The notes: generated by a model from the letters alone, not told the origin. A stretch of 64,000 bases of DNA from Massalongia carnosa (GCA_965645245.1 OZ287075.1:1240001-1304000); one strand, 5' to 3'; numbered from the stretch's first letter, positions 6,501-64,000 are shown. Numbers and translations: made by a program.

Positions 6501-7908
6501 TCGTCGACTCTTCTTCGGTTACTGCTAAGGTTGAGTCAAAATTTGTAACATAATCTTGTCCTGCTCCACTGAGGGTTTGAGCTTGTTGGCTTGAAGATAA
6601 GGTAGCATCAAGAACTTTTGCATCGGAATGTTCAATTACAGGTAAGGTAGCTGCAGTAACACTCGTTTGTTGCTGTTGAGTTGATGGTGAGGTAGCAGTA
6701 TTTAGCATAGCTTGTGAGTTTTCCGGTGTTGATAAAGTAGTAGAGGTAGCATGAACGGTTGTAGCATGTGCATTTTGAGTTGCGGAAAACATAGCAGGAA
6801 TGCTGGCTTGTTGCTTTTGTTGAGTCGCTAATGAGGTAGCACTATTTATCATAGCTTGTGATGATTCAGGTGTGGATAAAGTAGAAGAGGTTGCATGAGC
6901 GGCCGTAGCATATGAGGTTTGAGTTGCGGGGAAGATAGTAGGAGCACTAGCTTGTTGACCTCGTCGATTCGCTAATGAGACAGCATCATTCATCATAGCT
7001 TGCAAGTGTTCGGTTTTGGGTGGTAAAGTATCAGAAGAAGCATGAACGAGTGTAGCATGTGGACTTCGAGTTGCAGAGAAGGTAGTATGAACACTGGCTT
7101 GTTGCTTTTGTTGAGTCGCTGTTGAAGTAGCACTGTTTATCATAGCTTGTGATGATTCAGCTGTGGATAAAGTAGAAGAGGTTGCATGAACGGTCGTAGC
7201 GTATGGGTTTTGGGTTGCGAAGAAGATAGCAGGAGCTTTAGCTTGTTGACCTTGTTGAGTCGCTGATGGAGTAGTATCAATCATCATAGCTTGTGAGTTT
7301 TCGGTTGTTTTGGGTAAAGTAGAAGAAGAAGTAGCGTGAATGAATGTAGTATGCGGGTTTTGGTTAGCTGGCAAGGTAGCAGTAACATTGACCTGTTGGT
7401 TTTGTCCGGCCGCTAACGAGGTAGCAGTATCAGACATATGATGATCTTGTCCAGTTGCTGACGAAGTACTATTTCCAATCATATCGTAATCTTGATCTTG
7501 ATCTTTTGCTGATGAGGTAGCATAGCCAGTTATACCATGATTTTGTCCAGTTGCTGATGAAGTACTATCTCCAATCATATCATAATCTTGATCCGTTGCC
7601 GATGAGGTAGCATAGCTAGTTACACTATGGTTTTGTCTAGTTGCTGTTAATCGAGGATCAGGAGTAACGGGTGGGTTTTGCCTAGTTGTCAATGCTGTAG
7701 TATCTGTAGTATCATCGCTCATGACTAGATCTTCATCATCTGCTTGTTGGCTAAAATTGACGCCTGTGGTAGGAAGAGTGCCGAAAGTTGACTGCATACG
7801 AGAATCTGGTGGACTTATGTATAGAAATTGAATCAGAGGTAGGGACGAATCGGAACCTTGGTTATGATCACCGCAGCCGGCAGGATCACTCATTAGAAAG
7901 TCACTCAT
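3577..7908 (-). CDS. 1443-aa protein: Thr/Ser/Gln-rich repeats, acidic/Pro-rich middle, long coiled coil, C-terminal transmembrane segment
   Basis: Single 4.3-kb open frame. Five 48-49 aa QAM repeats, an E/K/Q/L heptad-rich region, and hydrophobic WLLLLFFFFLFVLWGGAVLGAAI near the C-terminus. Confidence 0.8.
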   Translation of the reverse strand: MSDFLMSDPAGCGDHNQGSDSSLPLIQFLYISPPDSRMQSTFGTLPTTGVNFSQQADDEDLVMSDDTTDTTALTTRQNPPVTPDPRLTATRQNHSVTSYATSSATDQDYDMIGDSTSSATGQNHGITGYATSSAKDQDQDYDMIGNSTSSATGQDHHMSDTATSLAAGQNQQVNVTATLPANQNPHTTFIHATSSSTLPKTTENSQAMMIDTTPSATQQGQQAKAPAIFFATQNPYATTVHATSSTLSTAESSQAMINSATSTATQQKQQASVHTTFSATRSPHATLVHASSDTLPPKTEHLQAMMNDAVSLANRRGQQASAPTIFPATQTSYATAAHATSSTLSTPESSQAMINSATSLATQQKQQASIPAMFSATQNAHATTVHATSTTLSTPENSQAMLNTATSPSTQQQQTSVTAATLPVIEHSDAKVLDATLSSSQQAQTLSGAGQDYVTNFDSTLAVTEEESTTSMNVTSSVNKQTQPTEDELADIIAAQMEFLDNDSTPPPPGDFEHLEGDSSEPEPDAIKALADHILKYAAGEDSDDSSELSDCRSIMTEEAFRHEFEQAWGEIEAEKAADKFIEEKIIPTEKQRAEIQARKRKVPKGRRNRMPISGISSQMATFEFDSKQQRPDPNTAIFSSEFTNQYDSPPKDESQASLPQTQGPLTIVFANTKTISSDEHPVPMDTEAQSAKPEDSERKESNEDAEIKNIQTQIYELTPPTSESKAPSFNPAPLPETSPIHIASHSNPAYVPPSPFGTAPIPAKSPAAPYNPASSYGTASLYTPTASHTASLFYVEPQHRRPLTTTEQAAVNSLSFMQLSHLKERFRGEISMELRKLHLEEFLRQNRQDLKAELLKELKTKHEADKGETRELSQRMHNVEIKMLHEQHERAMGNVQEEHKKEVEKQKKFVVDNYNRELEKRRKKFNEQFKNELEKQRQTDSEQHKLELERQRQTISEQHKNEVLQQQESMLATLRTREEQAYSQGLMDAAAEHAQKWSMMDQDLANQRAKLDSDMAELRRQRAEAEGSMQIDTVEALQSEIIKHNEQLSNLTEEASAVIDRLQRSNHVLLEKNELLEKDMEINRGDLSKAQDELREAKLNSNKSSRVIEAQDKEATGLNATIASLQEEATKAAAAFKTKANAAKGLLEEVATVKKERDLASENLAKESQARQRAEADKKILAEVNTALRAEIAVLETRPETVELEAATQQYELLSLQFEQILDEHQEARKLGGEQEAQIKGLTSELGALRRRLQTNAEGFSLNPEAFPILSLPPRRRPAVEKHALGAIQHYNDVTTMLERRELFELERDSFILGMKNGQKEEEERKARMKTWKEEEKWVVVVPAVEKEKEEEEEEEKWVVVVPAEEGRVGARVALGWKWLLLLFFFFLFVLWGGAVLGAAIQERESWLSGDEMVARAAITLRAGGDSPWFWEDPLSDSSTGF
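3815..3910. repeat. 60-bp-period tandem duplication encoding EEEKWVVVVPA x2
   Basis: gcaggcacaacaaccacccacttctcctcctcct occurs at 3815 and 3875. Confidence 0.9.
6640..7400. repeat. Coding tandem repeat with 144-147 bp units
   Basis: The anchor catagcttg recurs at 6706, 6850, 6994, 7141 and 7285. Confidence 0.9.
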
Positions 7909-10900
7909 TCTTCTGAGAGCAAAAATTTCTCTTTCTTAATCTATTCGAGTGTAATATCAAGAGTGCCTTGATGAAAGGTGAAGGGTATAGCTTGGTGAAA
8001 GATGAAAAGTTTGGTTTTGACTAGGATCAAACATCAAAGATATGCTCAGCAGAGACTGCCTTGATAAGATATGAGGGTAGGTCTCGATGAAATATGATGA
8101 AGGGTATGGCTAAGGTCAAACGTACGCATGATGTACTTAGCACAAATTGTCTTGATTAGAGATGAATGATATGAGAAGATCGGAGCGATGCTCGTCAGGA
8201 CCAATGCTGTTTCACAAGGAAAGAAAGAAAAAGAAGAACTGGGAGGGAGGGTATGTTATAAATTTATAGAAATGTGGATGTCCGGGTAGCAAGTGGGTGT
8301 TTTGTTAGTGTCTGTGTACTTTGTGGGTAATCAAAGAGTATTTTGTGTTGCTGTTGATGTTATTGTAGTGTTGTGTGGGTGGTGTGGATGAGCGTTACGA
8401 AAATTATACGTGGTTGGACGCGAAGGTAGCTGAATGTTGAGATGATCGTGACAACTGAGTTCCAATGACGCGGTTGAGAATCAACCTTAGCTAGATACCT
8501 AAATCGAGTATTAAATTCCCAACAACTCGGTCGAAAATTTGGGCAATTGGCTTTGTTGGTAATATGTACCCAGACAGCATCCGGATCCGGCGTAGCTAGA
8601 CGACTGAGAAATTATCAGACACACATCATGTTTTTCTATACGTGGATCCATCTCTGTTTAGCTGCCTTGTTTAATCATCTGCTCTAGTTATCTAATTAGT
8701 CATTCCTTCAAATCTCCTTGTACCTGAAGAAAGATAAAAGAGAGCGGATAAGAATACATTAACAGCGAAGATTCGATTGTCAAAGACCAATGAATGAGAT
8801 GGTATATGGAAGGTTAAGAGAAGAGTAAAAGCAATATTCTAAAAATCTTTTCCTATATTGCGCTGGAGCACATATGAACTTCGAGCTAATTTTCGTCATT
8901 TCTACTTTTTCTAGACATCTTGCCCTCGTTAATCAGAATCATTAGACATTGAACGTCTCAGAAAAGAGCTGTACACAATTTTCCACAGTCGGCGTGGGTT
9001 GCTCAAACTTACATTTCATGCCTTTCCGGTAACCTCATTCCCAAAGAGACCATCGTTGGCACCTATGATAATACCGTGCCAGACTCACGCTGCGGTCAAA
9101 TTACCATCACGAGGACTAGCAATAAAATTGGATAAGCTGCAGGGGCTATTTTGCCAAGGATCACCAACCTCCTATTGTAGGATACTTGCTAAGCTCCTTT
9201 GGGGTCGAGACACTCCACCCTCGAGCCTTACTCAATATTCTGCAGCGCTTGTTGGGATGAGCAGAACTAGGAAGAACTTGGCAGGGAAAGAATGGAATAG
9301 AATGACGGTTCAAAGAGGATATGCAAGTAAACTCTCCTCATGAGCCGAGTGACCGCCAGAGTTGCTGCCGAGGAAGAGACTGTACACCAGACCCCAACGC
9401 GGCAGCAAAAGGGCCTATATGCGGACCCCAATCCTTGAAGCCTTCGACACTATAATTACATGGGAACGGAAGGGACAAACCCGGAAAGATGAAGTATAGT
9501 TTGGATTCCTGAGGGGTTTTGATTTTAGTATAGCGTGCCTATTATCACACGCTCCCTTCGAAGGCCCACAACATGAGTTCCAAGCGCTCCGAACTCAACA
9601 GCGTTATCTATCGAATGTGAACTACTCTTTCTTCGCGGGGGAAATGGAAAAGTGATCTCTCTACATGTCTCTGATCATAGATCTTACAGACGACCGTTTC
9701 AAGTTTCATTCGTAGTTCAAGAGGTGAAGAGGCAGCCAATTCCCCATTCAAAGGGTTAAGATTCAAATCAACCGCAGATGATCCTAACAGTAGTTTAGTA
9801 ACAATCTGGTTAACCTAGAATCCTGCCACAATTATATACCTAAAGGACCTTTAATCAATATACCATTACTATTTTCATAGAATCCTATAGCATTTGAATA
9901 GCTTATTGTATAAATATCCATAGAAAGTAGTATCGTCAACTGGGAAAGCAACGACAATAAAAAAGATTTCATCCTTCGCCTTGTAGTTATTGATGTTGAA
10001 TGGGTTCCAAGTTGCCGGATGAAACCTAGTGGCGGGTAACTAACTATGTACTCGTACTAATGCTAGTTAAACGTTAGGGTTCGTGGCTAAACTTCGGAAT
10101 GCCAAGAGAGATAGTTATGATCTACCCAAAAGCAGTAAGGAACTGTTGTTTGATCTTAAACCTATGGGAAATAAATCGCATTTATCCAAGGCCGACCGGC
10201 GACACAATGGTGTAGAGCTTAAAGGAGGAATATGTTAGCCATAGGACTTCCCTGAGGGTAGGAGAAGGTGGAGAAGAAATGCTAAAAGATTAAGTGAGAT
10301 ATCCTGACAGAAACGTTCCGTAGTGTCAGCTCGTTTGTATTTTCTCGGCGTAGAAATCTTTGCTTAAACGACGACTGGTCCATTGACGATGATGCTACTA
10401 AACCATATAGAATGCGCCGAAAAATTTTAAGCACGGCTATCACTTTCATTCTCACTAAAGACTACGGCAATATTAGGATAGAAATTTAGAGAGCATTTAT
10501 AAAATTAAGGTATGGGTGAGGGCCGAGAGAGAGCCCTAGGATCAGAAAGACATACGGTTGCCTCCTATTTCCACCCTTGACCTTTCCACCAAGCTCCAAC
10601 AGCTCAAAGTTGAACACGTACCTGTCGCTGCGCACTGCTGGCTGCTTAAGACTGAAGTACAGCATTTTCCCCTTCAGGTGCAAGAGATCCGCCTTCAGCC
10701 AAAGTATTTCAACGGAAGCCTCCACTAAGATAAACCTAGTCCATTAGCATATTGAATAGCTATGCGGCCATGCGAAACTCAAGCTCCAGTTAACTGTAGA
10801 GCTAAGGACCGGTACTGAAATGCTGAGGAGAACTCTTATTGGCGCGACGAAGGAGAAAAGGATGTTTGATGGATGGAATTATTGATTTCCAAAACAAGGT

Positions 10901-19512: not shown

Positions 19513-21440
19513 CAGTCAGATCGGGTTATAAGAAACTCTAAAATCGTAGCACCTAGGTATCTTATTAAGCGAGGTTTCTAATATCAAAATTCTTGGCATA
19601 TTTTGAAGACTATACCTATCGACTACCTAATGGCAAAGAAATCTGTCATTACAGCTTGCATAGAGCTAATCGCCATTGAAGTCTTGATATCCCACTCTTT
19701 ACGATTCAGACGACGTATCAAATCATCGTCACCGACCTCTCGTTGCTCCTCATATAACCGTAACGTTTCAAGAGCTCGTAGAGCGTCCTTGTTTTGGTGA
19801 TACAATGGCCTCCTCCTCCGTCTCGTATTCACTTTCATGGTCATCATATATAGCAACGATGTGATCCTTCAAAGCCTCTTCGGTATCCTCTACCACCTCT
19901 TCAACAGGGTTCAGGAATTCGTCAATACGCATGACGCTTTGTATATGACCACGATCTTCCAAAGGCCTTATTGTAGCTTGTATCTGTAGTCGTTGCTCCG
20001 TTTCTTGATCTTGCGCCCGAGTCTCATTGAGATAGTCATATTTCTCTGCCTCTTCTCGAGTCATTGACCCATATTTTGCCCCGATTACACGGGATTTCAG
20101 TTAACATTTAGAGATAGTTAACTGATAAAACCGTAATTCCAGGCGGCTACGCACCAACTTATTGTCATCAATACGTTGATGGTTTTAGTGGCTCCCTATC
20201 TTCGTCGTATTCGGAGGCTATGTACTTTAGGCAGCGTTGTCTGTAATGAAGCCTTGAAAGCGCCTATAATACCCTGATCCAGCGGCTGGCATAAGCTGGT
20301 AGTATTGACTGACAGAAATATAATGCTAACATTGGATAAACCACCTTCAGCAACTATGATATCCCAGCCGCTTTGATGGGCTGAAAAATTGTCAATTAAC
20401 AATACGACCTTACGACTTACGTTGCCATTAAACCAGCGTAAATACTCCCGAAATATATCGCCCAACATCTAAGCTCTGCTGTTACTGCGTCATATCATAT
20501 GCAGATTACAAGCGTGAGCACCCTGTGAACCAAAAGCACTCGGATTTTGGCCGTCCCAATGAACCATATGAGAAGCTTGTGAGTTCCAGTAGCATTGCAA
20601 CAGAAATTTGCAGTAACTCTCGCTTTTTCCACCTTTCCGCTTGAGAGCTGTTCCGTAGCCAATGTAGGACTGGATGTAGCCTTCCAAAATAACGCAGTTT
20701 CATCCATGTTGTAGATATCTTCCTGATCGTATGGTAATAGCTGTACCTGTATTACTTCTAGCTCTTCTTCAACCTCCACACGCTTGACGGAATCGAGCTC
20801 GCCGTGTTGTCTATGTTTTGTAATCTTGTATCTTCTTTTGAAAGAATCCAGCCATTCAATAGAGAATCTGAAAGGTGATTGATTACGGTACAGAGGCAAT
20901 CGTTTCCAAAATTTCAAGGCCATTTCTCTTAACAAATCGCCCAACAAAGGCGCTCTTTTGCGTTGCATGCGCTGTTGCCACTCAAATAAGGCCGTTTCTA
21001 ATTCAGGCCAATGTGCAGTTCGACTTTTCTTCAGATTCGGGCGTAGCAATGCGTGAGATGTATCCAGATGAGCCCATTCATGTGAGAGAATTTTGGAAAC
21101 TTGTCCTTTGTCAATTTTATGACGGTAAAGATTGTCAAACCAAACGACCAGTTTTTCGTATTTCTTGTTATCTCCAGATACAGCATATCTCGATAACGCT
21201 GTCGTAATGCTCGTCGTTGATCGTCGGTAAAGGCGTCACGCTTTTTCTGCTTCTCTCTCTGAGAGAAAGCGGGGATGTAGGACGTTTTCGAGATTTCGAG
21301 ATGAAGGAGATGAAGTCTCCGGATTTTGACTATTATATCTCAAAGAAGTCGAAGAGAAAGTCATATTTACTGTAAGAAACCACCGCAAAATTTTTAGAGA
21401 AAGTTAAGAAACTTTCTAATAGAGCGAGGTTTCTTATCCC
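19513..21440 (-). mobile_element. Tigger/CENP-B-like pogo-family transposon, degenerate transposase (about 19623-21364)
   Basis: TA + cagtcagatcgggttataag terminus. Fragments WPELETALFEWQ, EWLDSFKRRY, IYNMDETALFWK, RVTANFCCNATG, LLIDNFSAH and CQPLDQGII, with frameshifts and stops. The second TIR was not found. Confidence 0.85.
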
Positions 21441-22303: not shown

Positions 22304-25300
22304 ACGTAACCCACCACTACTTTAAACACCAGAATATGTAAATACCCTCATCGTCATCATCAATGACAGCGACAATAATGATGAATTAAATAAATCTGAA
22401 TAGCCTCGTCGCTCGAAAACAGTCTGATCATCACCCGAGAGTAATTACATCCCCCACCCCCCTTCCATTACCATCTGAAAAACCTCGTCGTCGAACTTCA
22501 GCTCTCAAGATTTATGTCTTCATAAATCAGGACTTCCCTCCCTCACCACCGGCCTGATAAAATAAGGCGCGTTCAAACTCGACCCGTAAAGACTCGGAGA
22601 TGCTTCCAAAGAACGAGCTTGCGGGGTAGGCGAACCCCATACAAAATTCAACTGTGTTTGGGTGAAATCCCAGGTAAACTCCATCTGACTTTGAGAGGTA
22701 AATGGAGCATTTGTAGGGAAATTACCTCGTCTTCTTTTCGATGGCCCTTGATTTAACATCTTCAACCTCTTTCCCTCCTCCTTCTGCATGGCCTTTGCCA
22801 CTCGTTCACGCTTACGTTCAGCCTTCAGTTCATCCTCTTTCTCTTTCTTCTCAGCCTGAGCGGCCAAGCGTTTGATCCTCTCATCTTTCTTTCTTTCAGC
22901 CTCCTTCTTCTTTTCAGCAGCGTTCACCTTTCTAGTCTCAACGGCCTCCTTTCTCAGACGAGTGACCTCTGCTTTCTCCTCCTCTTCTATACGATATGCC
23001 TCGGCCTGAGCCTCGGTGAGAACACGTCCGAAAGCGCTACCATAAGTAGCCCTTTCCCCTGCCTCTTTTATCTTTTTCTTTCTCTCCTCCTTGGCCAGAT
23101 TCGCTTTGAATAATGACTGAGTAGAGTCTTGAAGAAGTGTTCGATCTGCGAAGGCGATAGCGGTTGCTCTTTTGAGACGCCGAAGCCGGTCTTGATGTGA
23201 TTTGGGTATGAACATTTCCAATGAATTCAACATAGCAGAGTAATCGCGCTTGTTAGAAAGAGTTCTATCGAAAGAATTGTTCGAAAATTAACTGTTGATG
23301 AAGGTGGAGATGGAGATGAAGGTGGAAGTCAAGGGAAATACGATTGAACTCGAAGGGGCCGAAGGAACCGATTGAAGAAATTGAGGTAATTTCTCAATTA
23401 CTCGCTGCAGGTCAAAAGGATAAATACCTGAACTTGTTAGCAAAACATTAAGAAAAGAATGTTACTTTACTCACCAGTTGCAGCCCAAGCTGACATGATT
23501 ACATCGGAAGTCACGACCGTTTCCCTTGCCCTCTTTAGAAACTTCAGGTAATCCAATTTATTCACGTACACCTCTCCGAATTTATTTCGCTCCTCTAGCT
23601 GTTTTTTGTATGCTTTGTCCAGAGGTCCGAAACATCCTACGTCCAAAGGCTGTAGAAAATGAGTAATATGAGGTGGAAGACAAAGCGGAACTATATCCAC
23701 TGACCAGCAGTACTCGATAAAATCAACAGAGACATGAGACGCATGCCCGTTAATTAGAAGAAGTCGTCGGCCTCCCAAATGAATTGTCTGAGGATTGAAA
23801 CACTCTCTCACTCAGGTCAGTCCAGTCAGTCCAGCCATTCTTGCTAACGGCAAAGGTTGCCTCAGGAAATTCCCCCTTCCAGGCTTTTACTATTCGTTTA
23901 TCTTCGAAGATAATCATGGGCTTGAACACGTATCCTCGAGTAGAAACGAACTCTATGCAGGTGCTCCATTTCCTGTCTCCAGAATGAACGAAAAAGGCGT
24001 TTTTGTCGCATCGTCGCACGATGACCTTCTACAAAATAATAATAATTTTAGCGTAAACATCAAGCCTTAAAACGATGAGGCTTAAAACTTTAGATCAAGA
24101 TTAAAATTTTCAACCAATCGATGATCTGAATGTAGCCCCGCTCATGCTTATTAACCGTAAAACATCTCGTCTCAGATATTTTCTAACCGAAAGTGACTTA
24201 GCTAAAAATATGATCACTTACCGAATATTTCCCGCAACTCCCATCAGATGTCCCTTTTCATCCGTGTTATAAACATCACCTGTCGCAATGCCATACTTGT
24301 CTATTGTTCTTCGAACAATCGAGAACCGAACACTTTGCGATCAGTGTTCCAGTGTCGTTCCTGATCCAAGTGACGAGGAAATCGAGAACGATAGTCCGGA
24401 TATCGATCAAGAAAGCGCTTCGTCCAATTAATTCCCAAAGATGCAGGAGATTCAACGCGAAGTCTCAACAACTTCATGGCCTTTTCACGAACCATATCAA
24501 AGCGAGCGGGAAAACCCAAAGCAGTGCTCGAATCAATGTAATTAAGAATGGATTGCTCCTCGCTGTCATTTAAAAGGCGACGAGTCAGACCATACTCCGC
24601 GGCATTTCGACTTCCTTTCATTCGACGGGCCACAGTTCCCCTGTTGACCCCGTAAATAAGAGCGACTTCGTTCGCTGTTTTTATTTTGCTCTTTGCAGCT
24701 ATGACAGCTAAACCTACACGATCTCCTCTGAAAAGCGGCGCAATCACCCGCCTAGCCAAAGGCGATGACATAGGCGAGAAAGATAGGGAAGAACATATCG
24801 AGTTCATGCGAGGTGGAGAGGGCGATGATGCATAAAAAGCCTCCAACTGTTCTTTCACTTCTCCGCGGATTTATTTGCGCACATGGTCCATGGTCATGTC
24901 CGGTACGCGTGCGAGACCTGTCCAATAGCCCTCCCGTTCTAAGACCTGAAAATATGCCAGTTGACGCAGTAGATCAAGCTCCTTGTCGGGATCATTATCC
25001 TTCAAAGCGGCCTTGAGCTCCGTGTTCAATTGTCGATGCACTCGCTCTCTCCACTCCTTAACAGATATACCATCTACAAAAGGTTCTTCGACAAGCTCTT
25101 CGAACTGTCGTCGGATGACGACGGCCTGAAACACCGGATTGATTGAACGTTGCGGGAGGGGGGGGGAAGAATAAAACAATGAATGATGACTGGTATCGAG
25201 AGTCTCGGAGACCTCGACAAGATCAGAGCATGGAACCTGTACGTTCTCCTGATTGGAAGAGATAGAAGGGCGCGCGCCGGATAGGAATTGTTCAATTGAA

Positions 25301-30683: not shown

Positions 30684-33600
30684 CCGTATTATCTGGCAAA
30701 TAAGACTCTAGTCTTATAGGGGGGTGATCAACCCGAGGGTCATTTGGAACGGGGTCTTATAAGCATGGGGGTCTTATAAACAGGTATGATCTTATGAGGG
30801 AGTGGAAAAAACGAAGACGCGCATCAAGTTTGGCCAGCGTTGGAGGTATCCCAGTTACGTATCACTTCATCATTTTATCCACCTTTATCATCTTTTCATT
30901 GCTTTATTTCATGGCTCCCTCGCACGTCCAGAATCCTATGCAGGCTCAAAACCAGCCTCGTCCTGGGCCTAATTCAAAGTCCACCAGTCTTCGCAGCTTG
31001 CATTCAGCCCGACTTCCCAAGAAAGCGTTTATGCAGCCTTCAATTCCTAGCATGCCCGGTTGTTCCAATGATAATGCTTCTATCATTAAACAATATCGTC
31101 TGCATCGAGAGGTGGGCGATCATCCTACACTTCGCGATATTTCTGACGACGAATATGATGCTCCTCGACATCGAGTATCCTACACCAGAGAGCAGAAAAT
31201 AGCTGCTATTAGCTATGCTCAAACTACCTGGAAGTCTCAGAAAGATGGAAGTATGAAGCTTATCAGTAAATATGCTGCAGCCAACAATCTTGGAATTACT
31301 ACCACGATGCTTAGAAAGTGGATTGAAAGTAGTTCGAGTATCGCCGCTCAACCTAAAGGTAAACGAAAAGACAGCAAAGCTATGGGTATATGTAAAGAGC
31401 CTGAGCTTAAAAGGCGACTTTTGGAGTTATTCATGGAAGCCCGTAACACTGGACGTAAAATCAATAAACGTTGGTTTATTCGTCAGGGTCGTCAGGTGTA
31501 TGGTCAATTATATCCTCATCGAGTGACTAAGGCATCCGGAAGAATGACTGAGTATGCCGAGTTCAAATTCTCTAATGGTTGGTTTCGTGGATTCAGACGA
31601 AGATGTGGTATAGCTGTCAGAAATCCTACCAAAAAAGCTCAGCAGGTGAATAATCAAATGTTTATTTTTTTGAACTAGAAGATTTCCCGAGGAAATGCCG
31701 CGCCCGGCGAAATGCCGCACTTTACAATTCGGCATTAGAATATTGTTTTCGTCGTTAATCAACTACAACGATTAATGGAATGTGTATTAAAAATAGTATA
31801 AATAGAAAGTATATACACGATATCCGACCCTAAAAACCTTACATAGCAAAACGCCCTGGGCGCTGGACCCTTCTTCCAGTCGAGGTAGTTAAAACCACCT
31901 CCTCTACCTCTTTAGCGATAATAACACGAGTAGGCGGCTTTACCTTCTTCTTTCGAGTCTTTTGAACTTTATTTGACCCTGTATACTGCTTCTGCTGCCC
32001 GAGCTGTCCCTTAGGATATCTGTTTGCTGCTTTACGTAACTCCTTCTGAGCCTGCTTCTCAGAGGCCTTTGCTACCTTTGCTTCTGCAGTCAATCGCCGC
32101 TTCTCTAGAGCGATTGCTACCTTTTCTAGCTTCTCCTCTTCTTTCTGTAACCTTTTAGCAGTAGCTTGTCGTCGCTTCTCGCTAATATCTAGCTGGCGTT
32201 GTGCTTCTTCTTCCTCTTTTGCTGCTTGAAATTCCCTGGCAGCCTGTACTCGCCTAGGACTAAAGAATTGAGGGCCTGAGTCCTCTTCCCCAACTAAATT
32301 AAGCCGTTTACCTCTCTTCCTCCTCTTCTTTTCGTCCTGAAGGGTATTGCAGAGCCCTTTGATCACGTGTTTGTTGATAGAGTCCTGGGCAGCAAGGCGT
32401 TCGTTAGCCCGGAAGATCTTTGCTAGTAATAACTTCGTAGGCGCAATATCGTACGCTCGCTGCGTACGGCGAATAGCACGGCTTGTCATTGGTATTTTTG
32501 GCGACTGAGAAGGAGCCTCGATTATCTGTGGTATGATAACATTTAGTATAAGGCTCGGATTGTAAGGCCAAATACCTGTTTTTTCGAAGGCAGAAGTAAG
32601 TTTTTCCCCCGAAAATGCCTGCTGCCATGCAGGGAAGAAAACGCTCCAAAAGTCTCTTTTTGACATGTTTATCATGCCTAGACTATCGAACATTAGTCTA
32701 TTCAGCCCATTGGTATAGAGCGTTGCTAACGGCGCGAATAGAGAAACGTCCAGAGACTGTAAACGATGCGTAGAGTGCGAAGGTAGAATCAGGAGAAGAA
32801 TACGTAAGTTATCGCATTTATCGATAAACTTAAGATTCACGTGGCTAGAATGACCGTCTACTATCAGTAAACGTCTTCTATTTCTAGCCTTTTGCTTCGT
32901 ATAACGCTGAAAAACCTGCTCTAGCCAATTCAGGCCAAGGATATCACAACTCCATCCTTTCGCCGATACTGCAAAGAACGCCTCGTCATTAGGATTTACA
33001 TCCTAAACCCATGTATCCTGGAGTATGCCAGAGTCGCCTTTATAGATCAAGGCAGGAGGTAAAGCGGTTCCGTCGGCCCCGATACAAGCAAGGAGGTTGA
33101 TAAACTCCCTATTCCCGTCCTGGCTTGCATGTGTGATCCGCCCTGATTCGAGGGCCTCTAGCGACATGATACGTTGCGTGGCGCTTGCTTGGCCAATCAC
33201 AAAGCCCTTTTCGTCCCAGTTGTAAAGGTTTTCCCCTGTGATATTGTATTTTTCGACACCGGCGATTAGCTAATAGAAACATTAGTTATTTTCGATCATA
33301 ATTAATATTCAACAAATAGGAATGGGTAGTTAACACGCTACCAAATCGTAGAATTGCTTAAATAAAGACGGATACTCAGATTTTATACGCTGGCTATCCA
33401 TATTTCGAAGATAAAGACTTTTAAGCCTATCCTTGTATCGGCGGACAAAATCCCCTGTCCAGTTCTTCCCTACAGGCCCTCCTATCACCTCCTCCGCTAG
33501 GTTTTGTACAATTCTGGCGGTTGGGGGCAGTCCACGATCGACAAGGCGATTGATTTGCTGAATTAAGGCCTATTCCTGGGCCAAGGTAAGTCGTTGCTTG

Positions 33601-35760: not shown

Positions 35761-37650
35761 CTACCGCACCACGCCATTCCTCTCCGTCAATACAATCCCT
35801 TTACCGCCGCCGCCGTTACTGCTGCCCCCCGACTCCCCCTCTCCGACCCACGACCCATCGTCTTCGGACCTAACTCGCTTGGTCCGACTGCCTTCCTCTC
35901 GCCTTGAGCGTCTGCGTCGCTTCCGTCTTGCAAAACCATCCACCCCTTTCTCCCCTTTGGGACTTTCTATCCCCTCTTCACGGCTTGGAGCGGGCGCTAA
36001 CCCAGCCTCGACGCGCATCCGCTGCACCACGGGCCCGAGTGCGAACTGGCTCTCGCCCCGATCGTGCTGACAGCAAGGGCTATGCGTAAGGGGGATAAAC
36101 CACTCGTACCAGCGCTCGCCCATGACGGACTTGAAGTTTGCAAAGGCACCCAAATCCCAAGGGTTTTCGCCTGGTTTACTGTGCAGGATTGCAAAGGTCC
36201 TTGGCTGGGGGTTTGGGTTTTGAGAAGGAGAAGAAGGGGATACTAATGGGTATGAGATTATGGGGAAGGGAGGGGAGGCCAAGGGTCGCGGAATATATAT
36301 TGCTAACTGCCAGACTTTGTTGCGGCGACTTAGGTTCTCGATGGTGGTTGTGTTGAGGATGACGAATTGAAGGGAACTCCCTGTTAACCCAATTGTGAAC
36401 GGGGCGAAGAATGCAGCGCTGCAAAAGTCGTAGTTAGTGGATTTGAAGCTAATTGGAGAAAGCGAATGGTAGACACCCACAAAGTGATTGTGACGATATG
36501 ATGATGATTGGTCTAGATGTAAAAAATATGTTAGCCTTGCAGGGACACAAGATGTCGGATTAAGCTTTTGTCTTGATGAAACGGAGCCGCATCCTTGCGT
36601 GGAAGGCTCGTTGGGAACAGGGATTGGATTCCTGGGTATAGAGAGGCAGATCGATGGGACGATCCCCAGGGCGTAACGAATTAGTGATAATTACAGGCGC
36701 GGAAAATCGCTTACCTTCTTTTTCAGCTCCGAGATAACAACTCCCATGATGATTAAGACGAAAATGCAGTATAGCGCGGTCCAGGCTACGAATTGGAGAA
36801 AGAACTTAAACGATGTTTCGGAGATAACACCCCCCACCCTATTTGTGATTTAACAAGGTCAGCCTTTTCACTCTTACAAAGGGCCCAGTAGACATTTCAA
36901 CCCAAGCAGACAGCGCTAGATGTTGAATTACTCACCAAGGACAGAAATGATCCATCTTTCGTACGCAACGACCTACCTCGCGGCAATGATGAGCTCTGTC
37001 GGGCTTCCAATTCAAACAATAGGAACACCATATAGGCTTTCCATTCCCTTCGCATGTAAATACTTCCTTGCCGAAAAACTCCCGCAGATCTGGCGAGGCA
37101 TCATCTGCCGGGAGAGGTCTTGTAGTTGGGGTCCCAGATTTTGTAGAGTCGCTGCCATACGCAAAGCCTTGAAGACTACTGCCATCCCAATTGCTATCTC
37201 GCACCACCTGGCCGGGCTTTTCTACTGAGGCGGGGTCTCTTGATCTTTCTTTGCCCCAGCCAAGGGTCTTCCGCTTACCGCTCTTCTCAGAACGTTCATA
37301 ATACTGAGGGCCTCTCAGAACGTAGCCAGGATTCAATATAACCGTCGAAATCAATCGGAGGTATGATATGGACATGAAAAACAGCAGGAAAGTATATATA
37401 ACAATAACCGCAACGGCCGTTCTATTGCGCGGTTTGTGCAGCAAAACTGGAGGTCGAAGGAAATAATCCACTGTTTGCTTCAAATCAGCAGAAGATTTTC
37501 CATGTAGATGTTCAATGACTGACCGCAAACCACCACAATCACGATATACGTCACATAACCTACGATCGCGGCCAGGCAGGTAGGTATTATACGGGCGGTA
37601 ATGCGGTTGACCAGCTTCTGGTTAACCCCAGCTTTGGTCGGAGGGGCCAT
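35761..37650 (-). CDS. PFA5: DHHC-type palmitoyltransferase (PFA5-like), multi-exon
   Basis: [45 protein letters not shown] (DHFC variant typical of filamentous-fungal Pfa5), plus NTTTIENL and GENPWDLG. Introns 37471-37523, 36839-36935, about 36512-36714 and about 36419-36480; the last two are less certain. Confidence 0.9.
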
Positions 37651-47208: not shown

Positions 47209-48693
47209 TCACCCCTCATCCACAAAAACCAAGCTAATGGAATCATCCCCGGCCGTCACAATCGTCCCTCCTCGCTGCACGAACCCCAGGACCCCCCCCC
47301 CCTCGCCGCCCCCCCTGTGCCCCCTAAATTCTCCCACGAGCCCTTGCCCGCTAGCGGACGTTCCCCCTCGGGAATCCCATCTCCGCACTACGCCGTCCAT
47401 GCCGCAACTCGTCAGGACATGCCCCCTTCCAGGCTCGTCCGAAAACTCCACCTTCACGACCGCGTATTCCTCGTGCGCGTCGCGTATATGCCGCCGCACG
47501 GCGAACCGGTGAGCTGTGTCGAAGAGAACGATGCTTCCATCCACGGAGCCGGCAGCTAACAAGGTGAGCGGAGCCGGACTGAACGAAAGGGTTTCGACGC
47601 CGTCGCTTTGGGCTTGTAGGCTCGCAAGGATTTGCCCGGACTGGCCGGCGCTGGCGGTTTCTGTGCCGCCGGTGCGTTTTCCCCCAGAATTCTTGCTCTT
47701 CACTCCGCCGCCTTTCGTGCCTGGCGTCCCTGCCGAGGTAATGGTTCCCAGCCGTGGTAAGCCAACGACACGGATCATGCCTCCGGCTCCGCCCACCACG
47801 GCGAAGGCGCCGGTTGGTGCTATGGCCACGCTATATAAACCCCCTTCCACGGCGAAGCGCTGATCATCCGCCGTTAGAGCGACAACGGCCTGGCTCTGGG
47901 TGCTCGTGACGCCTACAGCAGCCGCATCACGGAAGACGTCGTACACGTAGAAACTTCCATCTTCGCTGACGGTCGCTAGCAGCTTCCCATCTGGCGTCCA
48001 GGCACCTGCGGTGCACGACTCGGTGTGTAGATAATACGCTTGAAGGACTTGTAATGGAGCAATCGTATCGCTCGCGTCGACTTTGTAGACCCAGACACTC
48101 CCGTCTCCAGCCCCCAGCGCGAGTATGTTGTGTTGTGAGGAATTAGGACAAGGAACGAGGAAGTTTACCTCCTGGACCTCCTGGGTTTCACCGACGAGAG
48201 GATAGTTTTTGTCGGATGCCGAGTGCGCGCGAAGACGACCATCAAGCCCGCCGGAAAGAAGGTAATCGCCGTTGGGTAAGCTAAAGATTATAGCGTTGAT
48301 GGAGTCGGTATGACCGGAGAGTTTGGCAAGAGGGAAAGGGGAGGGCTTCGTCGGAGAAGGATTCGACTCGTAAGAGGAGGGTAGCAGCTGCGAGGGAGGA
48401 GACGCATCAAACACGTAGGCCGTGTCGTCGCCGGAGCCTGTGGCGACGATGAAGGGGTTGCGGGGATGTTGCGCTATGCTAAATATCGAATCTTTGTGAA
48501 GATCAAAGTACGCTCTGGAGTCGTTCTGGAGGTGGATTTCCTCGTCCAGTCCCTCGCCATCGGGATCGTCGTCTTCCGAGTCCATCGCATGATCTGGATC
48601 GCTGGGGATCTCCTCGCCAGCTTCATCGGCGTCGAGGAGGGCGTCATCGTTCTCGAGCGGTTCATGGCCTGTAGAGGGAATATGTGAAGCCAT
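47209..48693 (-). CDS. SQT1: WD40-repeat 60S ribosome assembly chaperone Sqt1
   Basis: Acidic N-terminus, then LQNDSRAYFDLHKDSIFSIAQHP, ATGSGDD, GHTDSINA, SGGLDGRLR, HTESCTAGAWTPDGK, FAVRRHI and GGVLGFVQ. Intronless; likely ATG at 48691-48693. Confidence 0.92.
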   Translation of the reverse strand: MASHIPSTGHEPLENDDALLDADEAGEEIPSDPDHAMDSEDDDPDGEGLDEEIHLQNDSRAYFDLHKDSIFSIAQHPRNPFIVATGSGDDTAYVFDASPPSQLLPSSYESNPSPTKPSPFPLAKLSGHTDSINAIIFSLPNGDYLLSGGLDGRLRAHSASDKNYPLVGETQEVQEVNFLVPCPNSSQHNILALGAGDGSVWVYKVDASDTIAPLQVLQAYYLHTESCTAGAWTPDGKLLATVSEDGSFYVYDVFRDAAAVGVTSTQSQAVVALTADDQRFAVEGGLYSVAIAPTGAFAVVGGAGGMIRVVGLPRLGTITSAGTPGTKGGGVKSKNSGGKRTGGTETASAGQSGQILASLQAQSDGVETLSFSPAPLTLLAAGSVDGSIVLFDTAHRFAVRRHIRDAHEEYAVVKVEFSDEPGRGHVLTSCGMDGVVRRWDSRGGTSASGQGLVGEFRGHRGGGEGGGVLGFVQRGGTIVTAGDDSISLVFVDEG

Positions 48694-48958
48694 TCGGAAT
48701 AGGTGTGTTTCGACAACAAGAGTGTGGCATGGGAAATTTAATTCTCTATCTCGCAATCTTTCTTTATAAGTACCTCGTAGTTATTGAATGTTTCCCCTTC
48801 CAACAAAAGGCATAGCTAAAGCTCCTCACTTCTTGCGCGCTGCAGTGCAACTTATTGGATTAGAAATCTTTACATGGTATGAGTTGTTAACGCTCATTTG
48901 AACCCCTCGCAATTTTGGTTGTTTAGATATGCATTGTTATTCGTAAGTTTTGTGTTTC

Positions 48959-49080
48959 GGTTCTATGGTGTAGCGGTCAGCGTATGACTTCCCATTTCTT
49001 GTTGAAATTTGATAATGTTAATCTAGTTTAGACTCTGGATTCTGATTCCAGCGACCCCGTTTCGAATACGGGTAGGACCT
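48959..49080 (+). tRNA. tRNA-Gln(CTG): tRNA-Gln(CUG) interrupted by a 50-nt GT-AG intron in the D-arm
   Basis: Exons 48959-48981 and 49032-49080 join to a 72-nt cloverleaf: acceptor GGTTCTA/TAGGACC, D-stem GTGT/GCAC, anticodon arm CTGGA-TTCTGAT-TCCAG, T-arm CCCGT-TTCGAAT-ACGGG. Confidence 0.92.
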
Positions 49081-49088
49081 TTATTTAA

Positions 49089-49095
49089 TTTTTTT
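49089..49095 (+). terminator. T7 run, possible Pol III terminator of the tRNA gene
   Basis: TTTTTTT beginning 9 nt after the discriminator base. Confidence 0.55.
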
Positions 49096-52000
49096 CCTCT
49101 TTCACTCCTCTTTTTCGTGAATGATTTCATTTTTCTAGTTTCCTATTGCTTTGAATTTTTTGAACCAAATTTTCAGTGTTGAGTTCAATTTATGAAGCGT
49201 TTCATCGTACAGAGAGAAGTTAGAATTAGGGTTGCCACTACTCGGTACACCACATGATCAATAAAGACCTGCATACTTTATACTTTCTCGTAATCTAGCT
49301 GTCTAGCTAGGTTTCAATCAATAAAACATGTATGTTTGGTATGGGCTGACACTAAGTCGCTCTCATAGTCCCCATCGAGTTGGACGAACGTATTGCTACA
49401 AGGTCAACTTTAATACCCCTAAGGACGAACACGCTATCCTATGGTCACTATCTACTTCTTGTACTCGCACCAAAGTGCCAGCAAAAGCTTCAGCAAGAGG
49501 GGAATCGAAATCTCGTCCAGGCATGGCCCAGAGTTTCCCTCCACAGTGTTCGTATGGTCGGACCAAAGCTTTTTCAACGCCGGGCGGTACTACGCGACCT
49601 TGTCTAGCTTTCAAGGTTCCAACAGCGTTCCTGAGGGTGGTGGCCGCTATGGTTACCTGAACGATTTATACATAATATGAGTCTATGATTGATTGAGGAA
49701 TAGGCACTTGAACCACTGACATGATGATATCAGGACTTGACACGCAGAGAGCCCATGCATTTTTACCATCCGACTGTCATCACAACGTACTCCAGTCTCA
49801 AACAAAGTAGCGCCAGTGACGGCGTCACTATGATGGGCGGCTTGGTTTTCCCGCTGCAATAGTAGGACGCAAGCGCACGAGGTGCTGAAGTATGTCTCGT
49901 CGGAATGTATCTAGGAAACGATTTCGAATATACAGGTATTCTTTGCTCGTCTGAGAGAGTGCTATTGTCTTCTAGATTCTTGCTCTAAAAGCTTACGCCT
50001 TGTTTCTTTGCGTCATTAATATATTCGGCGATATATTGTAAGGGAATAGTGACGTTTAACCTGTTCAACGTTGCCTTAAGCGCTGGCTTTACCTTCCAAA
50101 AAAAAAACGCCATTTGCTCACTAATGAGTTCCATCCCCAATGGGAGGTTGTTACTTCGTGACTTGGCCTGTCTCTTTTCCAAACAAGCCTTTTGGGCTAG
50201 GAGCATGTTCGTTTAGTATCATTGGAGATATTTCACTGGTGTTCGAGAGCAGCGTGTCTCCCCCTGTTTTCCAGCATGGTGATATTGAAAATAAAGAGCT
50301 GGGAAAAGGATCACCAAGAAACAGTCAAAAATAAACCAATTTCTACTATTCTTAACATAACCACTGTATTCGCCAAAGACTTTACCACCATTCCATCTCT
50401 CTGCGTCTTGGCTTTTGTATACCTATTCCCATTTCTCGTACTCTATTAGTACTCCGAAGATCACGGCTCACTCGGTCTTGAGCGGAGGTCCTGCGTTTTC
50501 TATACACGGCATGATCTCTTGTAACGGGGGTTCTCAAATTGCGACCAATCGTCATTCATCGCATCCTTCACATCCTTCGCATTCTTCGCATTCTTTGCAT
50601 CCTTCGCGCAATTTTTGTCCGCGAGAAATCTTCTTGGGTTTGCAATAGGCTAAAGCAGGTTACCTTGAGTCTGCTGCGCCTCCGGGCTACCTAAAATCCC
50701 CATGTCTTTTTCTCTCTTAGAGCTTCCCACAGTTGGAGGTCCAGAGCCCAAAGCGCAAGGGAGAGAGTTTTCATGGGTTGATCTCCACGAGATCGGTAAT
50801 CAACCGAATCGTTGCGTTCTAACGAATACGAAGTATGAGGTTCTTCGTCTTCGAGCTTCGGTATATATATAGGACAAGCCACCTCATTGGTGTTTTCGTT
50901 GTCCCCCTTTGAAAAGATTTGAGATGAATGGAGTCTAGGGGATGGACCTATTGCTGCCTCTAAACTCCATTTCTGCTTCTCTAAGACACTACCTGTCCAC
51001 GCCTAGACATAGCTAGCTCTTTAGGGTCTTCACTGTTTAACCAGTGAGTAAGGGTCAAGATGTGGACGCTTAAGCTCCCTGACCGGAGCTAACAGACGAG
51101 ATCACCTGTATCGGAGTTGTCTCTACACGCGAAGCTCCTAACAAAGATATTGTTATATTTCTGCTGTTTCTTTAGGGGGTGTTTTTACATAGAAAATCAC
51201 TTGTAAGTACCTGTGCTTACATATGATGAAAGAAAGGGAAGGCTAGAGGAATGAGAACTTAACCAAAAGGAGGGGAAAAAGAGCCCTATTGTCTTACGCT
51301 CGCGCTTCTTGTGACTATTACGGATGTTATCGCTGCCCTTGAAATTTGTCGAGCGAGGACCAAGAAGCTGGTATAGACGTTACTACGTGGACGGAAACGT
51401 ATTTTTCGTTGGTTCATCTGTATCATAAAAGAAGAGTTAAGGCCATGTGCAAACGCCAATTCTAGTTATTCTTTGAATCATGAAGATCTTCTTCCTGTTC
51501 TGCATCACGCGCGTAAGCGTACTTAACCTGTTTAGTAGTTCAATATTTGTTCTAAGAGTTATATCTCTCCGTATAGTTGCTAAGAATTATGTCTCTCAGT
51601 AGAGTTGCTACTCTTTCCAATTCCCATGCTCGTCTTATTGTTTTATTCGATTTCTCTTTTTCCCTCAGGATGCACCACACTGAACGTACTGTCAAGGCAG
51701 ATTAGACGAAGAATCTGACTTGCCCCTTTTAGAGTCGAATTTCACATAACAAGGTTTTCACTGGGTTTGTAGACTCGATGCAAGAAGAATGCGCTAGTCC
51801 TTGCTGATCTAATATTTTCGCATAGTATTCGATACGTTCTCAAAATCCGTCTCATTTGTATTTTGTCATTGTATTACCCTTGTCACTGTTGGTTTGGTGT
51901 AGATATCATGTTCCACCCTGGAAGTTGTATCAACTCACGGTAGACGCTAGATGGGTTCTATGGAATCAATCTGTCGGCTGGAAGGAAGTGCGGAGCAGCC

Positions 52001-62019: not shown

Positions 62020-64000
62020 CCAGCAGCAAGAAAAGAAAAACCGCCCCAGCCGGCTCTCATGAAGTATCGCCGGCAGGCCCAAGCCGCCCAACAGGAACGT
62101 CGTGGAAGGACACAGAGATCATGAAGCCCATGAACATGCAAAGAGCAATGGCAAAGCCCATTCTAGGCAGACCACCCAACACGTCAACGACGATGGCTGC
62201 AACACCCGCCCCCACCCGCACCAATCCCGCCGCCCACCCGCTGCAACCCTCCCCGCCGACCCCCGACACACCTCCCCCCCTCGACGACCAAGGACTAATC
62301 ACCCGCACCGCTCCTGCAACGGACGTAATGGAAGAAGGATGTTTATGAAGGACACAAACTCCATTAACATACTACAGTACAACGTCAGAAACGACCGAGT
62401 AAGTACAATGATACCACTTTTGGCAGATTCAAACACGCAGGACTACGACGTTATAGCAATACAGGAACCATGGCGGAGCACGCACGCCCCGACCACTCTT
62501 AGCTCTCACCAAAGCGGATTCCACCTTCTATATCGCCCCGGCGGCGACACACGCGTATGCTTCTACGTCAACGAGAAAATCGACCCGGAAAGCTGGGAAG
62601 TAGAATTCCCAACCGCAGACCTATGCACGTTGAAATTGAACGTGAGCACCGACGGTGTTACGAGAACGTTGCACATTCATAACGTGTATAACCCGTCCCC
62701 GTCTTCTTATTCATCCACAGACAGCCCCTCCACGCTCCCGGCTGTTCGTCAGCAACTCGCCGCAGATGCACAGCACGTCCTCCTCGGCGATTTCAACCTT
62801 CACCATCCATTTTGGAACGGAGTCACAAGGCCAACGCAACACGCAGCCGCGGACCAACTACTGGATATAGTAGAAGAATTCGATCTCTCACTTACACTGC
62901 CCAAAGGGACCGTTACATGGGAGGCTCGGAACTCTTTTAGCACCATAGACCTAGTATTTATGTCGGAATTCCTGACGGAAAGACTAGAACACTGCATGTC
63001 GAGACCGGAAATGAACCAATCCTCTGATCACATCCCGATTTCCACCCGCATTCTTCTCGGTAGTGAACAGCTAACGCAAGTCAAGCGCAGAGCATGGAAA
63101 CTGCTGAACATGGAGAAACTGAGAGAGGCAGAAAGCAACGCCCCGCCCGTCACCCACCCTCGCTCCGCCGAGGAAATTGACCAGTACGCTCAGACAATCC
63201 AAGAGTATCTTCAGAAAATCATAGCCGCCTCCGTCCCCTGGGCCAGACCCAGCGAATACGCGAAACCTTTTTGGAACGAAGAATGCAATCGCGCCATCCG
63301 TGAGACTCGCAAATTGCGCCGTTCCTGGTCGTCATCGCGTCACATGGACGACTGGAAAGCGTACATGAAGTCCAACGACAAGAAGCAAAAGATAATCCGA
63401 AAAGCAAAAATGCTCTCATTCCGCAAAGAGATCAGTGCAGTCACCGAGTCGCCGCTGGGCATATGGAAGCTGGCAAGATGGGCAAAAGATAGAAGCCAGA
63501 AGCCCCGCGAGATACTGAAAATGCCGCCACTGAGGCACGGAGGGCAGACGGCGGAGACGTTCGAAGAAAAAGCGGAAATGCTGAAAGCCAAGTTCTTTCC
63601 CCCACCACCGCCGGCGGACCTGAGCGACATACCTGGGTCATTCTACCCCGCTGCCGCGGATTGTCCCATGATGATCACAAAGAACGAAGTGATCGCAAAC
63701 ATACAATGCCTCAAGTCCGACAAGGCTCCGGGTCCTGACGGGATCACCAACAAAATCCTCAAGGCATGCTCTACAAAGCTAGCAGAATTGCTAACCCCTT
63801 TATTTCAGGCGTGCGTCACGCAAGCGTATCATCCTCGCGAGTTCAAAAGAGCGAACACGATAACGCTCAAAAAACCGGGAAAGAAAGACAACACCAGCCC
63901 AAAGGCATATCGGCCCATAGCTCTCCTGAACACAATGGGTAAAGTTCTAGAAGCGGTCATCGCAAAGAAAATCACCCACATAGCGGAACAGCATCGGCTC
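62020..64000 (+). mobile_element. 5'-truncated Tad-like LINE (non-LTR retrotransposon), continues past the window end
   Basis: Abrupt switch to A/C-rich coding sequence near 62020. The Pro/Thr-rich ORF1 tail ends at 62348 and overlaps the ORF2 start. Confidence 0.9.
62345..64000 (+). CDS. LINE ORF2 (APE endonuclease plus start of reverse transcriptase), 3'-partial
   Basis: All in one frame from ATG 62345: ILQYNV, DVIAIQEPW, HNVYNP, GDFNLHHPFW, STIDL, SDH, KAPGPDGI and AYRPIALLNTMGKVLE. Missing from the ORF track because no stop lies inside the window. Confidence 0.93.
   Translation, partial: MKDTNSINILQYNVRNDRVSTMIPLLADSNTQDYDVIAIQEPWRSTHAPTTLSSHQSGFHLLYRPGGDTRVCFYVNEKIDPESWEVEFPTADLCTLKLNVSTDGVTRTLHIHNVYNPSPSSYSSTDSPSTLPAVRQQLAADAQHVLLGDFNLHHPFWNGVTRPTQHAAADQLLDIVEEFDLSLTLPKGTVTWEARNSFSTIDLVFMSEFLTERLEHCMSRPEMNQSSDHIPISTRILLGSEQLTQVKRRAWKLLNMEKLREAESNAPPVTHPRSAEEIDQYAQTIQEYLQKIIAASVPWARPSEYAKPFWNEECNRAIRETRKLRRSWSSSRHMDDWKAYMKSNDKKQKIIRKAKMLSFRKEISAVTESPLGIWKLARWAKDRSQKPREILKMPPLRHGGQTAETFEEKAEMLKAKFFPPPPPADLSDIPGSFYPAAADCPMMITKNEVIANIQCLKSDKAPGPDGITNKILKACSTKLAELLTPLFQACVTQAYHPREFKRANTITLKKPGKKDNTSPKAYRPIALLNTMGKVLEAVIAKKITHIAEQHRL

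Follow-up and report, generated by a model that had tools for sequence, protein, structure and literature searches.

The 64-kb window of Massalongia carnosa (the whole stretch of DNA that was analyzed, 64,000 nucleotides long, from whose first letter all positions are counted) contains one tRNA-Gln(CUG) gene whose D-arm is split by a short insert of the mRNA intron type (Table 1). By Pfam, the window is gene-poor and repeat-rich. Its sole Pfam-supported cellular genes encode a WD40 protein and a DHHC palmitoyltransferase, and they share the window with fragments of Tc5/pogo-type transposases, a LINE-like retroelement, and a long uninterrupted open reading frame (ORF).

One mRNA intron could be pinned within the window, by a Pfam domain that it splits in the DHHC palmitoyltransferase gene. 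This predicted intron shows that the spliceosome of the organism reads signals of the GTGAGT...CTGAC...TAG type. Its length of 97 nt lies outside the range of about 44-62 nt that the initial annotation gave for the mRNA introns of the window, so that the stated match in length with the insert was not confirmed. A second intron of the DHHC gene starts at 36714, and its acceptor is ambiguous. The stretch with the locus was complete in three sequencing runs of one organism, and 57% of the sampled words of the locus were present in a lichen metagenome run.

Table 1. Features of the window, with positions counted from its first nucleotide
Feature	Position	Strand	Details
Upstream A/T-rich stretch	48922-48943	+	About 20-40 nt before the gene; TTGTTATT in the window, TGGTTATT in the relatives
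Exon 1 of tRNA-Gln(CUG)	48959-48981	+	23 nt; acceptor 5' strand, U8 G9, D-stem 5' strand GTGT, D-loop, G22 C23 of the D-stem 3' strand
Predicted exon-1/intron hairpin	48967-48999		5' splice site in a 5-nt apical loop
Intron, mRNA-type, between tRNA positions 23 and 24	48982-49031	+	50 nt, GTATGA...TTTAG
5' splice site GTATGA	48982-48987	+	Identical in 13/13 loci (window and L001-L012)
Intron segment +4 to +18	48985-48999	+	Complementary to exon-1 positions 9-21 (RNAalifold, pair counts)
Branch-point-like TTAAT	49018-49022	+	Fits YTRAY; putative branch A at 49021, 10 nt from the last base of the intron
3' splice site TAG	49029-49031	+	YAG in 13/13 loci
Exon 2 of tRNA-Gln(CUG)	49032-49080	+	49 nt; A24 C25, anticodon arm, 4-nt variable loop, T-arm, acceptor 3' strand, discriminator T
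Anticodon CTG	49042-49044	+	Within exon 2
T-arm bases U53 and A61	49060 and 49068	+	Exon 2
T7 run	49089-49095	+	Resembles an RNA polymerase III terminator; 9 nt past the discriminator
Conserved 44-nt block	49375-49418		About 295 nt downstream of the tRNA gene
WD40 (SQT1-like) gene	47212-48780	-	Divergent from the tRNA gene, start 266 nt away
DHHC palmitoyltransferase gene	35764-37621	-	DHHC domain split by an intron
mRNA intron of the DHHC gene	36839-36935	-	97 nt, GTGAGT...CTGAC...TAG, branch 20 nt from the acceptor
Tc5/pogo-type transposase fragments (HTH_Tnp_Tc5, DDE_1)	20498-21235, 23470-23811, 24304-24870, 30728-31675, 31842-33002	mostly -	
LINE-like retroelement ORF	62063-63997	+	Runs off the end; endonuclease/exonuclease/phosphatase and endonuclease-reverse-transcriptase domains
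Uninterrupted 1452-aa ORF	3580-7935	-	No Pfam family at E <= 0.001

Recovery of the tRNA upon removal of the insert

The initial annotation expected tRNA scanners to miss this gene, and they did: in the intact window, ARAGORN called no tRNA and no Rfam family reached its gathering score. Below that threshold, the sole Rfam match was a partial tRNA at 49017-49072 (21.8 bits against a cut-off of 29), in which the end of the insert takes the place of the D-arm. When the insert was deleted, ARAGORN returned a tRNA-Gln(ctg) of 72 nt, with stems of 7/4/5/5 bp, a 7-nt anticodon loop, and the T-loop TTCGAAT. In the window, the full cloverleaf with anticodon loop, acceptor stem, and discriminator is therefore obtained only after intron removal, and the coordinates first given for the 50-nt insert proved exact.

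To control for chance recovery, every GT..AG segment of 30-150 nt was deleted, on both strands, and each product was scanned for a tRNA. These 51,512 removals gave four tRNA calls, all at the 48959-49080 locus. The same procedure with seven other dinucleotide pairs (411,992 removals) gave 36 tRNA calls in the window; among the 33 of these that were listed, 32 lay at the tRNA-Gln locus, and the one elsewhere was a 97-nt "tRNA-Ala" at 2060-2123.

ARAGORN is a lenient scanner that accepts a D-stem made almost wholly of wobble pairs. Removals shifted by +2 (48984-49033) or +3 (48985-49034) also pass, leaving a D-stem with one Watson-Crick pair and three wobble pairs. The GCAC strand of the D-stem is restored solely by the exact GT-AG removal, and since unlike bases flank the two junctions, no alternative cut yields an identical product. 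Thus, the initial assertion that the boundaries cannot slide stands for the restored GCAC but is too strong for the scanner, which also takes the +2 and +3 cuts.

Splice signals and predicted structure of the insert

The donor, GTATGA, matches the extended consensus GURNGN in all 13 loci (the window and the 12 relatives described below). The branch motif fits YURAY throughout, as CTAAC or CTGAC in 12/12 relatives and as TTAAT, a weaker version, in the window. The distance from the branch A to the intron end is 10 nt in all seven distinct sequences checked, window included, and this spacing is constant though the introns measure 50 nt in the window and 55 nt in the relatives. On the exon side, the donor (AGC/GU) pairs poorly with U1. 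The donor, the TGTTAAT-type branch about 10 nt from the TAG, and the acceptor had all been pointed out from the window, and all are kept in the relatives.

The intron alone has no stable fold (z = +0.82 versus shuffles), and the precursor folds no better than its shuffles (z = -0.81). A group I or group II intron was rejected, as the insert is 50-55 nt long, lacks a stable fold, and matches no Rfam intron family. With regard to an endonuclease-type intron, the insert lies at 23/24, not 37/38. The bulge-helix-bulge fold, which the initial annotation had set down as evidence against a spliceosomal intron, could not be drawn: none of the 16 registers tried gives a 4-bp central helix, the canonical register has one of four pairs, and the motif is absent from both the minimum-energy and the centroid folds.

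A different structure is predicted, in which the 5' third of the intron pairs with exon 1. The pairing holds in 97.4% of alignment cells, versus 40-60% with the partner slid, and comprises 8 further pair types versus 2-4 in slid partners, the structure having been derived from the same sequences that were used to score it. Every change in the hairpin is one-sided: the transitions affect the intron strand, which faces an exon strand rich in G and U. The window itself pairs less well. Retention of the hairpin by the relatives is suggestive. As modeled, it would partly bury the 5' splice site, and the precursor may perhaps be held in a non-tRNA fold until it is spliced.

Conservation of the locus in relatives and a second locus

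We searched metagenome contigs with a pattern of 14 fixed positions ending at C23 and 14 letters from A24, separated by a free gap of 37-67 nt, that required neither GT nor AG. The scan found 12 loci (L001-L012), representing nine haplotypes, on contigs of up to 516 kb. All 12 have a 55-nt insert at the 23/24 site that starts with GTATGA, holds CTAAC or CTGAC, and ends in YAG. An orthologous insert lacking GT or AG would have spoken against the initial annotation, and all 12 have both although the pattern demanded neither. None of the 12 unspliced relatives gave an ARAGORN tRNA, and removal of the 55 nt gave tRNA-Gln(ctg) in at least 11 of them, the gene of L012 being identical to that of L006. 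Eight matches to the end of exon 1 plus GTATGA in prokaryote genome contigs and one in viral contigs were set aside as chance matches, none of the nine being tRNA-like.

Variation among the nine haplotypes is distributed unevenly. A single exon column of 72 is variable (the discriminator, in L008 and L009) versus 19 of 55 in the intron (Fisher p = 2e-7); the 40 nt upstream have 31 variable columns and the 25 nt downstream have 4. Within the introns of the 12 relatives, positions 1-7 (GTATGAT) are invariant, the branch motif varies solely at its degenerate R, and the acceptor varies solely at the base preceding the terminal TAG (C or T), the final TAG being invariant. Between the window and the relatives, exon identity is 69-70/72, and 26-31 of 55 aligned intron columns are identical. 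Exon 1 of the window differs from that of all 12 relatives at one base (C16 versus T16), and exon 2 differs by A61 versus C61 and, in L008 and L009, also at the discriminator. The alignment bore out what had been anticipated for relatives, with exons and splice signals kept and the intron interior diverged. At the level of DNA, both the anatomy of the gene and its conservation are established, and the pattern indicates selection on exons and splice signals alike.

A T run of 5 or 6 lies at or directly past the discriminator in 12/12 relatives, which makes a run of T5-T7 in 13/13 loci. Within the intron, T runs reach at most 3 nt in the window and 4 nt in the relatives. Upstream of the gene, the A/T-rich stretch is partly conserved and may be a candidate TATA-like promoter element.

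The window and all 12 loci also share the 44-nt block, at 82-86% identity; it lies 290-370 nt downstream of the gene in the relatives (1009-1052 in L001). We regard the loci as orthologous because this downstream block is common to all of them. On this basis, the intron predates the split of the window lineage from the metagenome group, and the 12 relatives are best counted as one origin, long retained, not as 12 independent cases. As a small RNA, the block was rejected: its fold is weak (-10.8 kcal/mol), its covariation term is positive, and it has no Rfam match. It is preceded by a weaker conserved stretch with GGCTGA. Synteny with the WD40 gene was sought by tblastn of the 600-nt flanks of the 12 loci, with no match, and L004 has no long upstream ORF. 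Two assemblies, JAABUK (L005, L011) and JAABUV (L007, L009), each hold two different haplotypes, a sign that a single sample may contain two related fungi or two diverged copies.

The last pair of the T-stem departs from the usual tRNA pattern. G53-C61 is near-universal in cytoplasmic elongator tRNAs and forms part of the B box. Here, all 13 loci have U at position 53; at position 61, the window has A and the 12 relatives have C, so that the T-stem ends in a U53-A61 pair in the window versus a U53.C61 mismatch in the relatives. The invariant G53-C61 is absent, and the B box is weakened relative to its consensus. The initial annotation used U53 and A61 as diagnostic bases; they are present in the window, but treating them as a marker only overlooked that the T-arm is in fact abnormal. 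The difference between U53.C61 and U53-A61 restores pairing, which argues for selection on a folded RNA. With G53-C61 replaced, the product may be an unusual tRNA or an RNA with no role in translation, and the odd T-arm is the main internal reason for caution.

A contig of the divergent strain X4 covers 48300-49800 with 23 substitutions and two indels in 1501 nt (about 1.5% divergence). It has no change in the 72 exon positions, three substitutions in the intron interior (49006, 49008, and 49017), and five changes within the 47 nt upstream of the gene; GTATGA, TTAAT, and TAG are unchanged. X4 alone is weak evidence, as the chance of zero exon change is P = 0.09-0.27. Contigs of the four sequencing runs aligned here, none of them on record as RNA, showed no joints, and run X5 contributed short, gapped pieces of low depth that carry no weight in either direction.

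Runs X1, X3, and X4 also contain a second, single-copy locus that matches 48956-48998 with two mismatches. The match spans exon 1 and the first 17 intron bases and then gives way to unrelated sequence with GCTAAT, which would make a good branch motif. The contig of the second locus has about the same depth as the contig with the main locus, and the depth of exon 1, about 2x baseline, corresponds to two copies and not to a family, on which ground we rejected a SINE or other repeat. The second locus is not in the window, where exon 1 plus 17 nt, at up to three mismatches, matches only itself. Its 30-letter continuation had no match in the metagenome contigs, and no piece of its contig aligned on exon 2. 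We take it to be a probable paralog, a glutamine tRNA gene whose intron occupies the same site, perhaps for another isoacceptor. The shared piece stops close to the end of the intron segment that is complementary to exon 1, which lends the predicted hairpin some weight.

Candidate routes of intron removal and their significance

The spliceosomal reading of the locus is partly supported. With moderate confidence, we propose that a lichen-associated ascomycete carries at this locus a functional nuclear gene for tRNA-Gln(CUG) and that the U2-type GT-AG intron of this gene is removed by the spliceosome. From the features described above, we infer that the RNA is spliced, that the spliceosome is the agent, which polymerase is used, and that the product serves in translation.

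The gene would be transcribed through the intron, which is situated between the A and B boxes. RNA polymerase III is the likely enzyme because the gene has an A box, a weakened B box, a downstream T run, and no intron T run longer than 4; alternatively, RNA polymerase II may transcribe it from the conserved A/T-rich upstream element. In the transcript, the spliceosome would recognize GUAUGA, the YURAY branch point 10 nt from the acceptor, and YAG. To judge by its motifs, the intron has conserved the elements that U1/U6, U2, and the second-step machinery read. The intron would leave as a lariat branched at 49021, with C23 joined to A24; this joining would allow the D-stem to form, and the tRNA would be completed by RNase P, RNase Z, and CCA addition. 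For this lichen-associated ascomycete clade as a whole, we consider it an evenly balanced question whether one or more glutamine tRNAs depend on the spliceosome for their maturation, and possibly every one, since the second locus has the same exon-intron start.

The abnormal T-arm is central to a different reading, in which the locus is a conserved tRNA-like element with no part in translation: a TFIIIC or polymerase III site with an effect on chromatin or on nearby genes, or an RNA active in fragments or without splicing, the intron signals being otherwise used or idle. The absence of G53-C61 and the mismatch tolerated by the relatives are consistent with such an element, as is the position of the tRNA gene 266 nt upstream of, and divergent from, the WD40 gene, and the locus need not be the sole tRNA-Gln(CUG) gene and may be dispensable. 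However, a protein site at the level of DNA needs neither full cloverleaf complementarity nor intron signals, and the near absence of variable exon columns (1/72), the conservation of the anticodon loop and both acceptor strands, and the pair-restoring change at 53:61 make this reading unlikely. A tRNA pseudogene, that is, a redundant copy broken by random insertion, would also account for an abnormal T-arm, and transposon remnants are abundant in the window. According to a 2014 review, a non-canonical insertion mostly affects a single gene out of many synonymous ones, and the interrupted genes are regarded as pseudogenes (PMC4090602). Yet the gene body is not drifting freely, with 1/72 exon columns variable versus 19/55 in the insert and 31/40 upstream. 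The insert site is common to at least two diverged lineages, the splice signals at the insert ends are conserved, and the insert as well as U53 would be lost if intact copies converted the gene. A pseudogene is already largely contradicted by these comparisons, and we give it very little credence.

A functional gene could also lose its intron to a protein endonuclease followed by an RNA ligase, with either the tRNA endonuclease acting non-canonically or another hairpin nuclease making the cuts. Introns of the D- and T-arms are excised in cryptophyte nucleomorphs and in Cyanidioschyzon, according to the same review (PMC4090602), and the 5' junction of the tRNA-Gln intron falls in the apical loop of the predicted hairpin, which is kept via one-sided changes. 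The 3' junction, in contrast, lies in no comparable loop, the intron is unstructured, and a bulge-helix-bulge fits 0/16 registers. Nor does this route give a reason for an invariant GTATGA, a CTRAC at 10 nt, and a YAG whose degenerate positions are the ones that vary, and we therefore judge it quite improbable. Cleavage of the Ire1 type was rejected by eye: the 5'-junction loop misfits the consensus for hairpin-loop cleavage, and the 3' junction lies outside a loop.

Removal by the spliceosome, the reading that we prefer, has partial precedents. To our knowledge, Pol III transcripts spliced by the spliceosome are limited to those of U6 snRNA genes. The closest precedent is the U6 gene of fission yeast: Tani and Ohshima reportedly described, in 1989 and 1991, introns of the mRNA type in U6 of Schizosaccharomyces pombe and of Rhodotorula. 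Like these, the tRNA-Gln insert is a short GT-AG intron with a branch site in the gene of a small structured non-coding RNA with Pol III anatomy. The U6 intron is removed by the spliceosome, whereas removal from tRNA-Gln is deduced here from sequence. Unlike U6, the host is a tRNA and not a spliceosome component, and an origin by reverse splicing at the catalytic center has no obvious counterpart in tRNA-Gln. Spliceosomal introns are also said to occur in the rDNA of lichen-forming and other ascomycetes (described by Bhattacharya et al. in 2000). Those share with the tRNA-Gln intron the mRNA type, a gene outside the Pol II class, and the same broad group of organisms, but their rRNA host is transcribed by Pol I, whereas the host here, a 72-nt tRNA, can take up its fold only once the intron is gone.

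Canonical eukaryotic tRNA introns lie at 37/38 and are cut by the SEN/TSEN endonuclease. The tRNA-Gln intron resembles them in that it must be removed for function and is predicted to pair with the adjacent exon in the precursor; it differs in its position at 23/24, in having no anticodon-intron pairing, and in its signals. Introns at non-canonical positions in tRNA genes of Cyanidioschyzon merolae and of cryptophyte and chlorarachniophyte nucleomorphs are likewise found in the D-arm and missed by scanners, but they depend on a bulge-helix-bulge for cutting by the tRNA endonuclease, and those of nucleomorphs are 3-24 nt long (PMC4090602, PMC3728597). The tRNA-Gln locus instead keeps a GT, a branch site, and an AG. 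The 2014 review regards non-canonical insertions in eukaryotic tRNA genes as rare and usually pseudogenes, with the nucleomorph and red-algal cases excepted, and ties these exceptions to bulge-helix-bulge motifs (PMC4090602).

The wider literature separates the two processes. A 2025 paper treats the introns of the spliceosomal, tRNA, and XBP1 types as having no relation to one another and places the spliceosomal ones in Pol II transcripts (PMC12530127), and a 2023 review contrasts the spliceosome with the tRNA splicing machinery (PMC10275265). In both, the intron types of eukaryotic nuclei are kept separate and tRNA introns are removed via endonuclease and ligase only (PMC12530127, PMC10275265). 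The initial annotation knew of no earlier description, and we likewise found no account of a spliceosomal intron in a tRNA gene in a full-text literature search whose coverage excludes most subscription journals.

If it is removed by the spliceosome, the tRNA-Gln intron would be of a kind not described before. It would represent a fourth mechanistic class of tRNA intron, and its host would be the second Pol III-type gene, after U6, to depend on mRNA splicing, coupling the supply of one tRNA to splicing capacity. For annotation, such split genes would be invisible to standard methods, and tRNAscan-type inventories can miss essential fungal tRNA genes; an intron-blind search, in which each GT..AG segment is deleted and the product scanned, can find the genes that were missed. 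A conserved, selected mRNA-type intron in the body of a tRNA would break the separation of the splicing systems, and it would offer a natural system in which to study the competition of the spliceosome against the folding of the tRNA, La, RNase P, and nuclear export.
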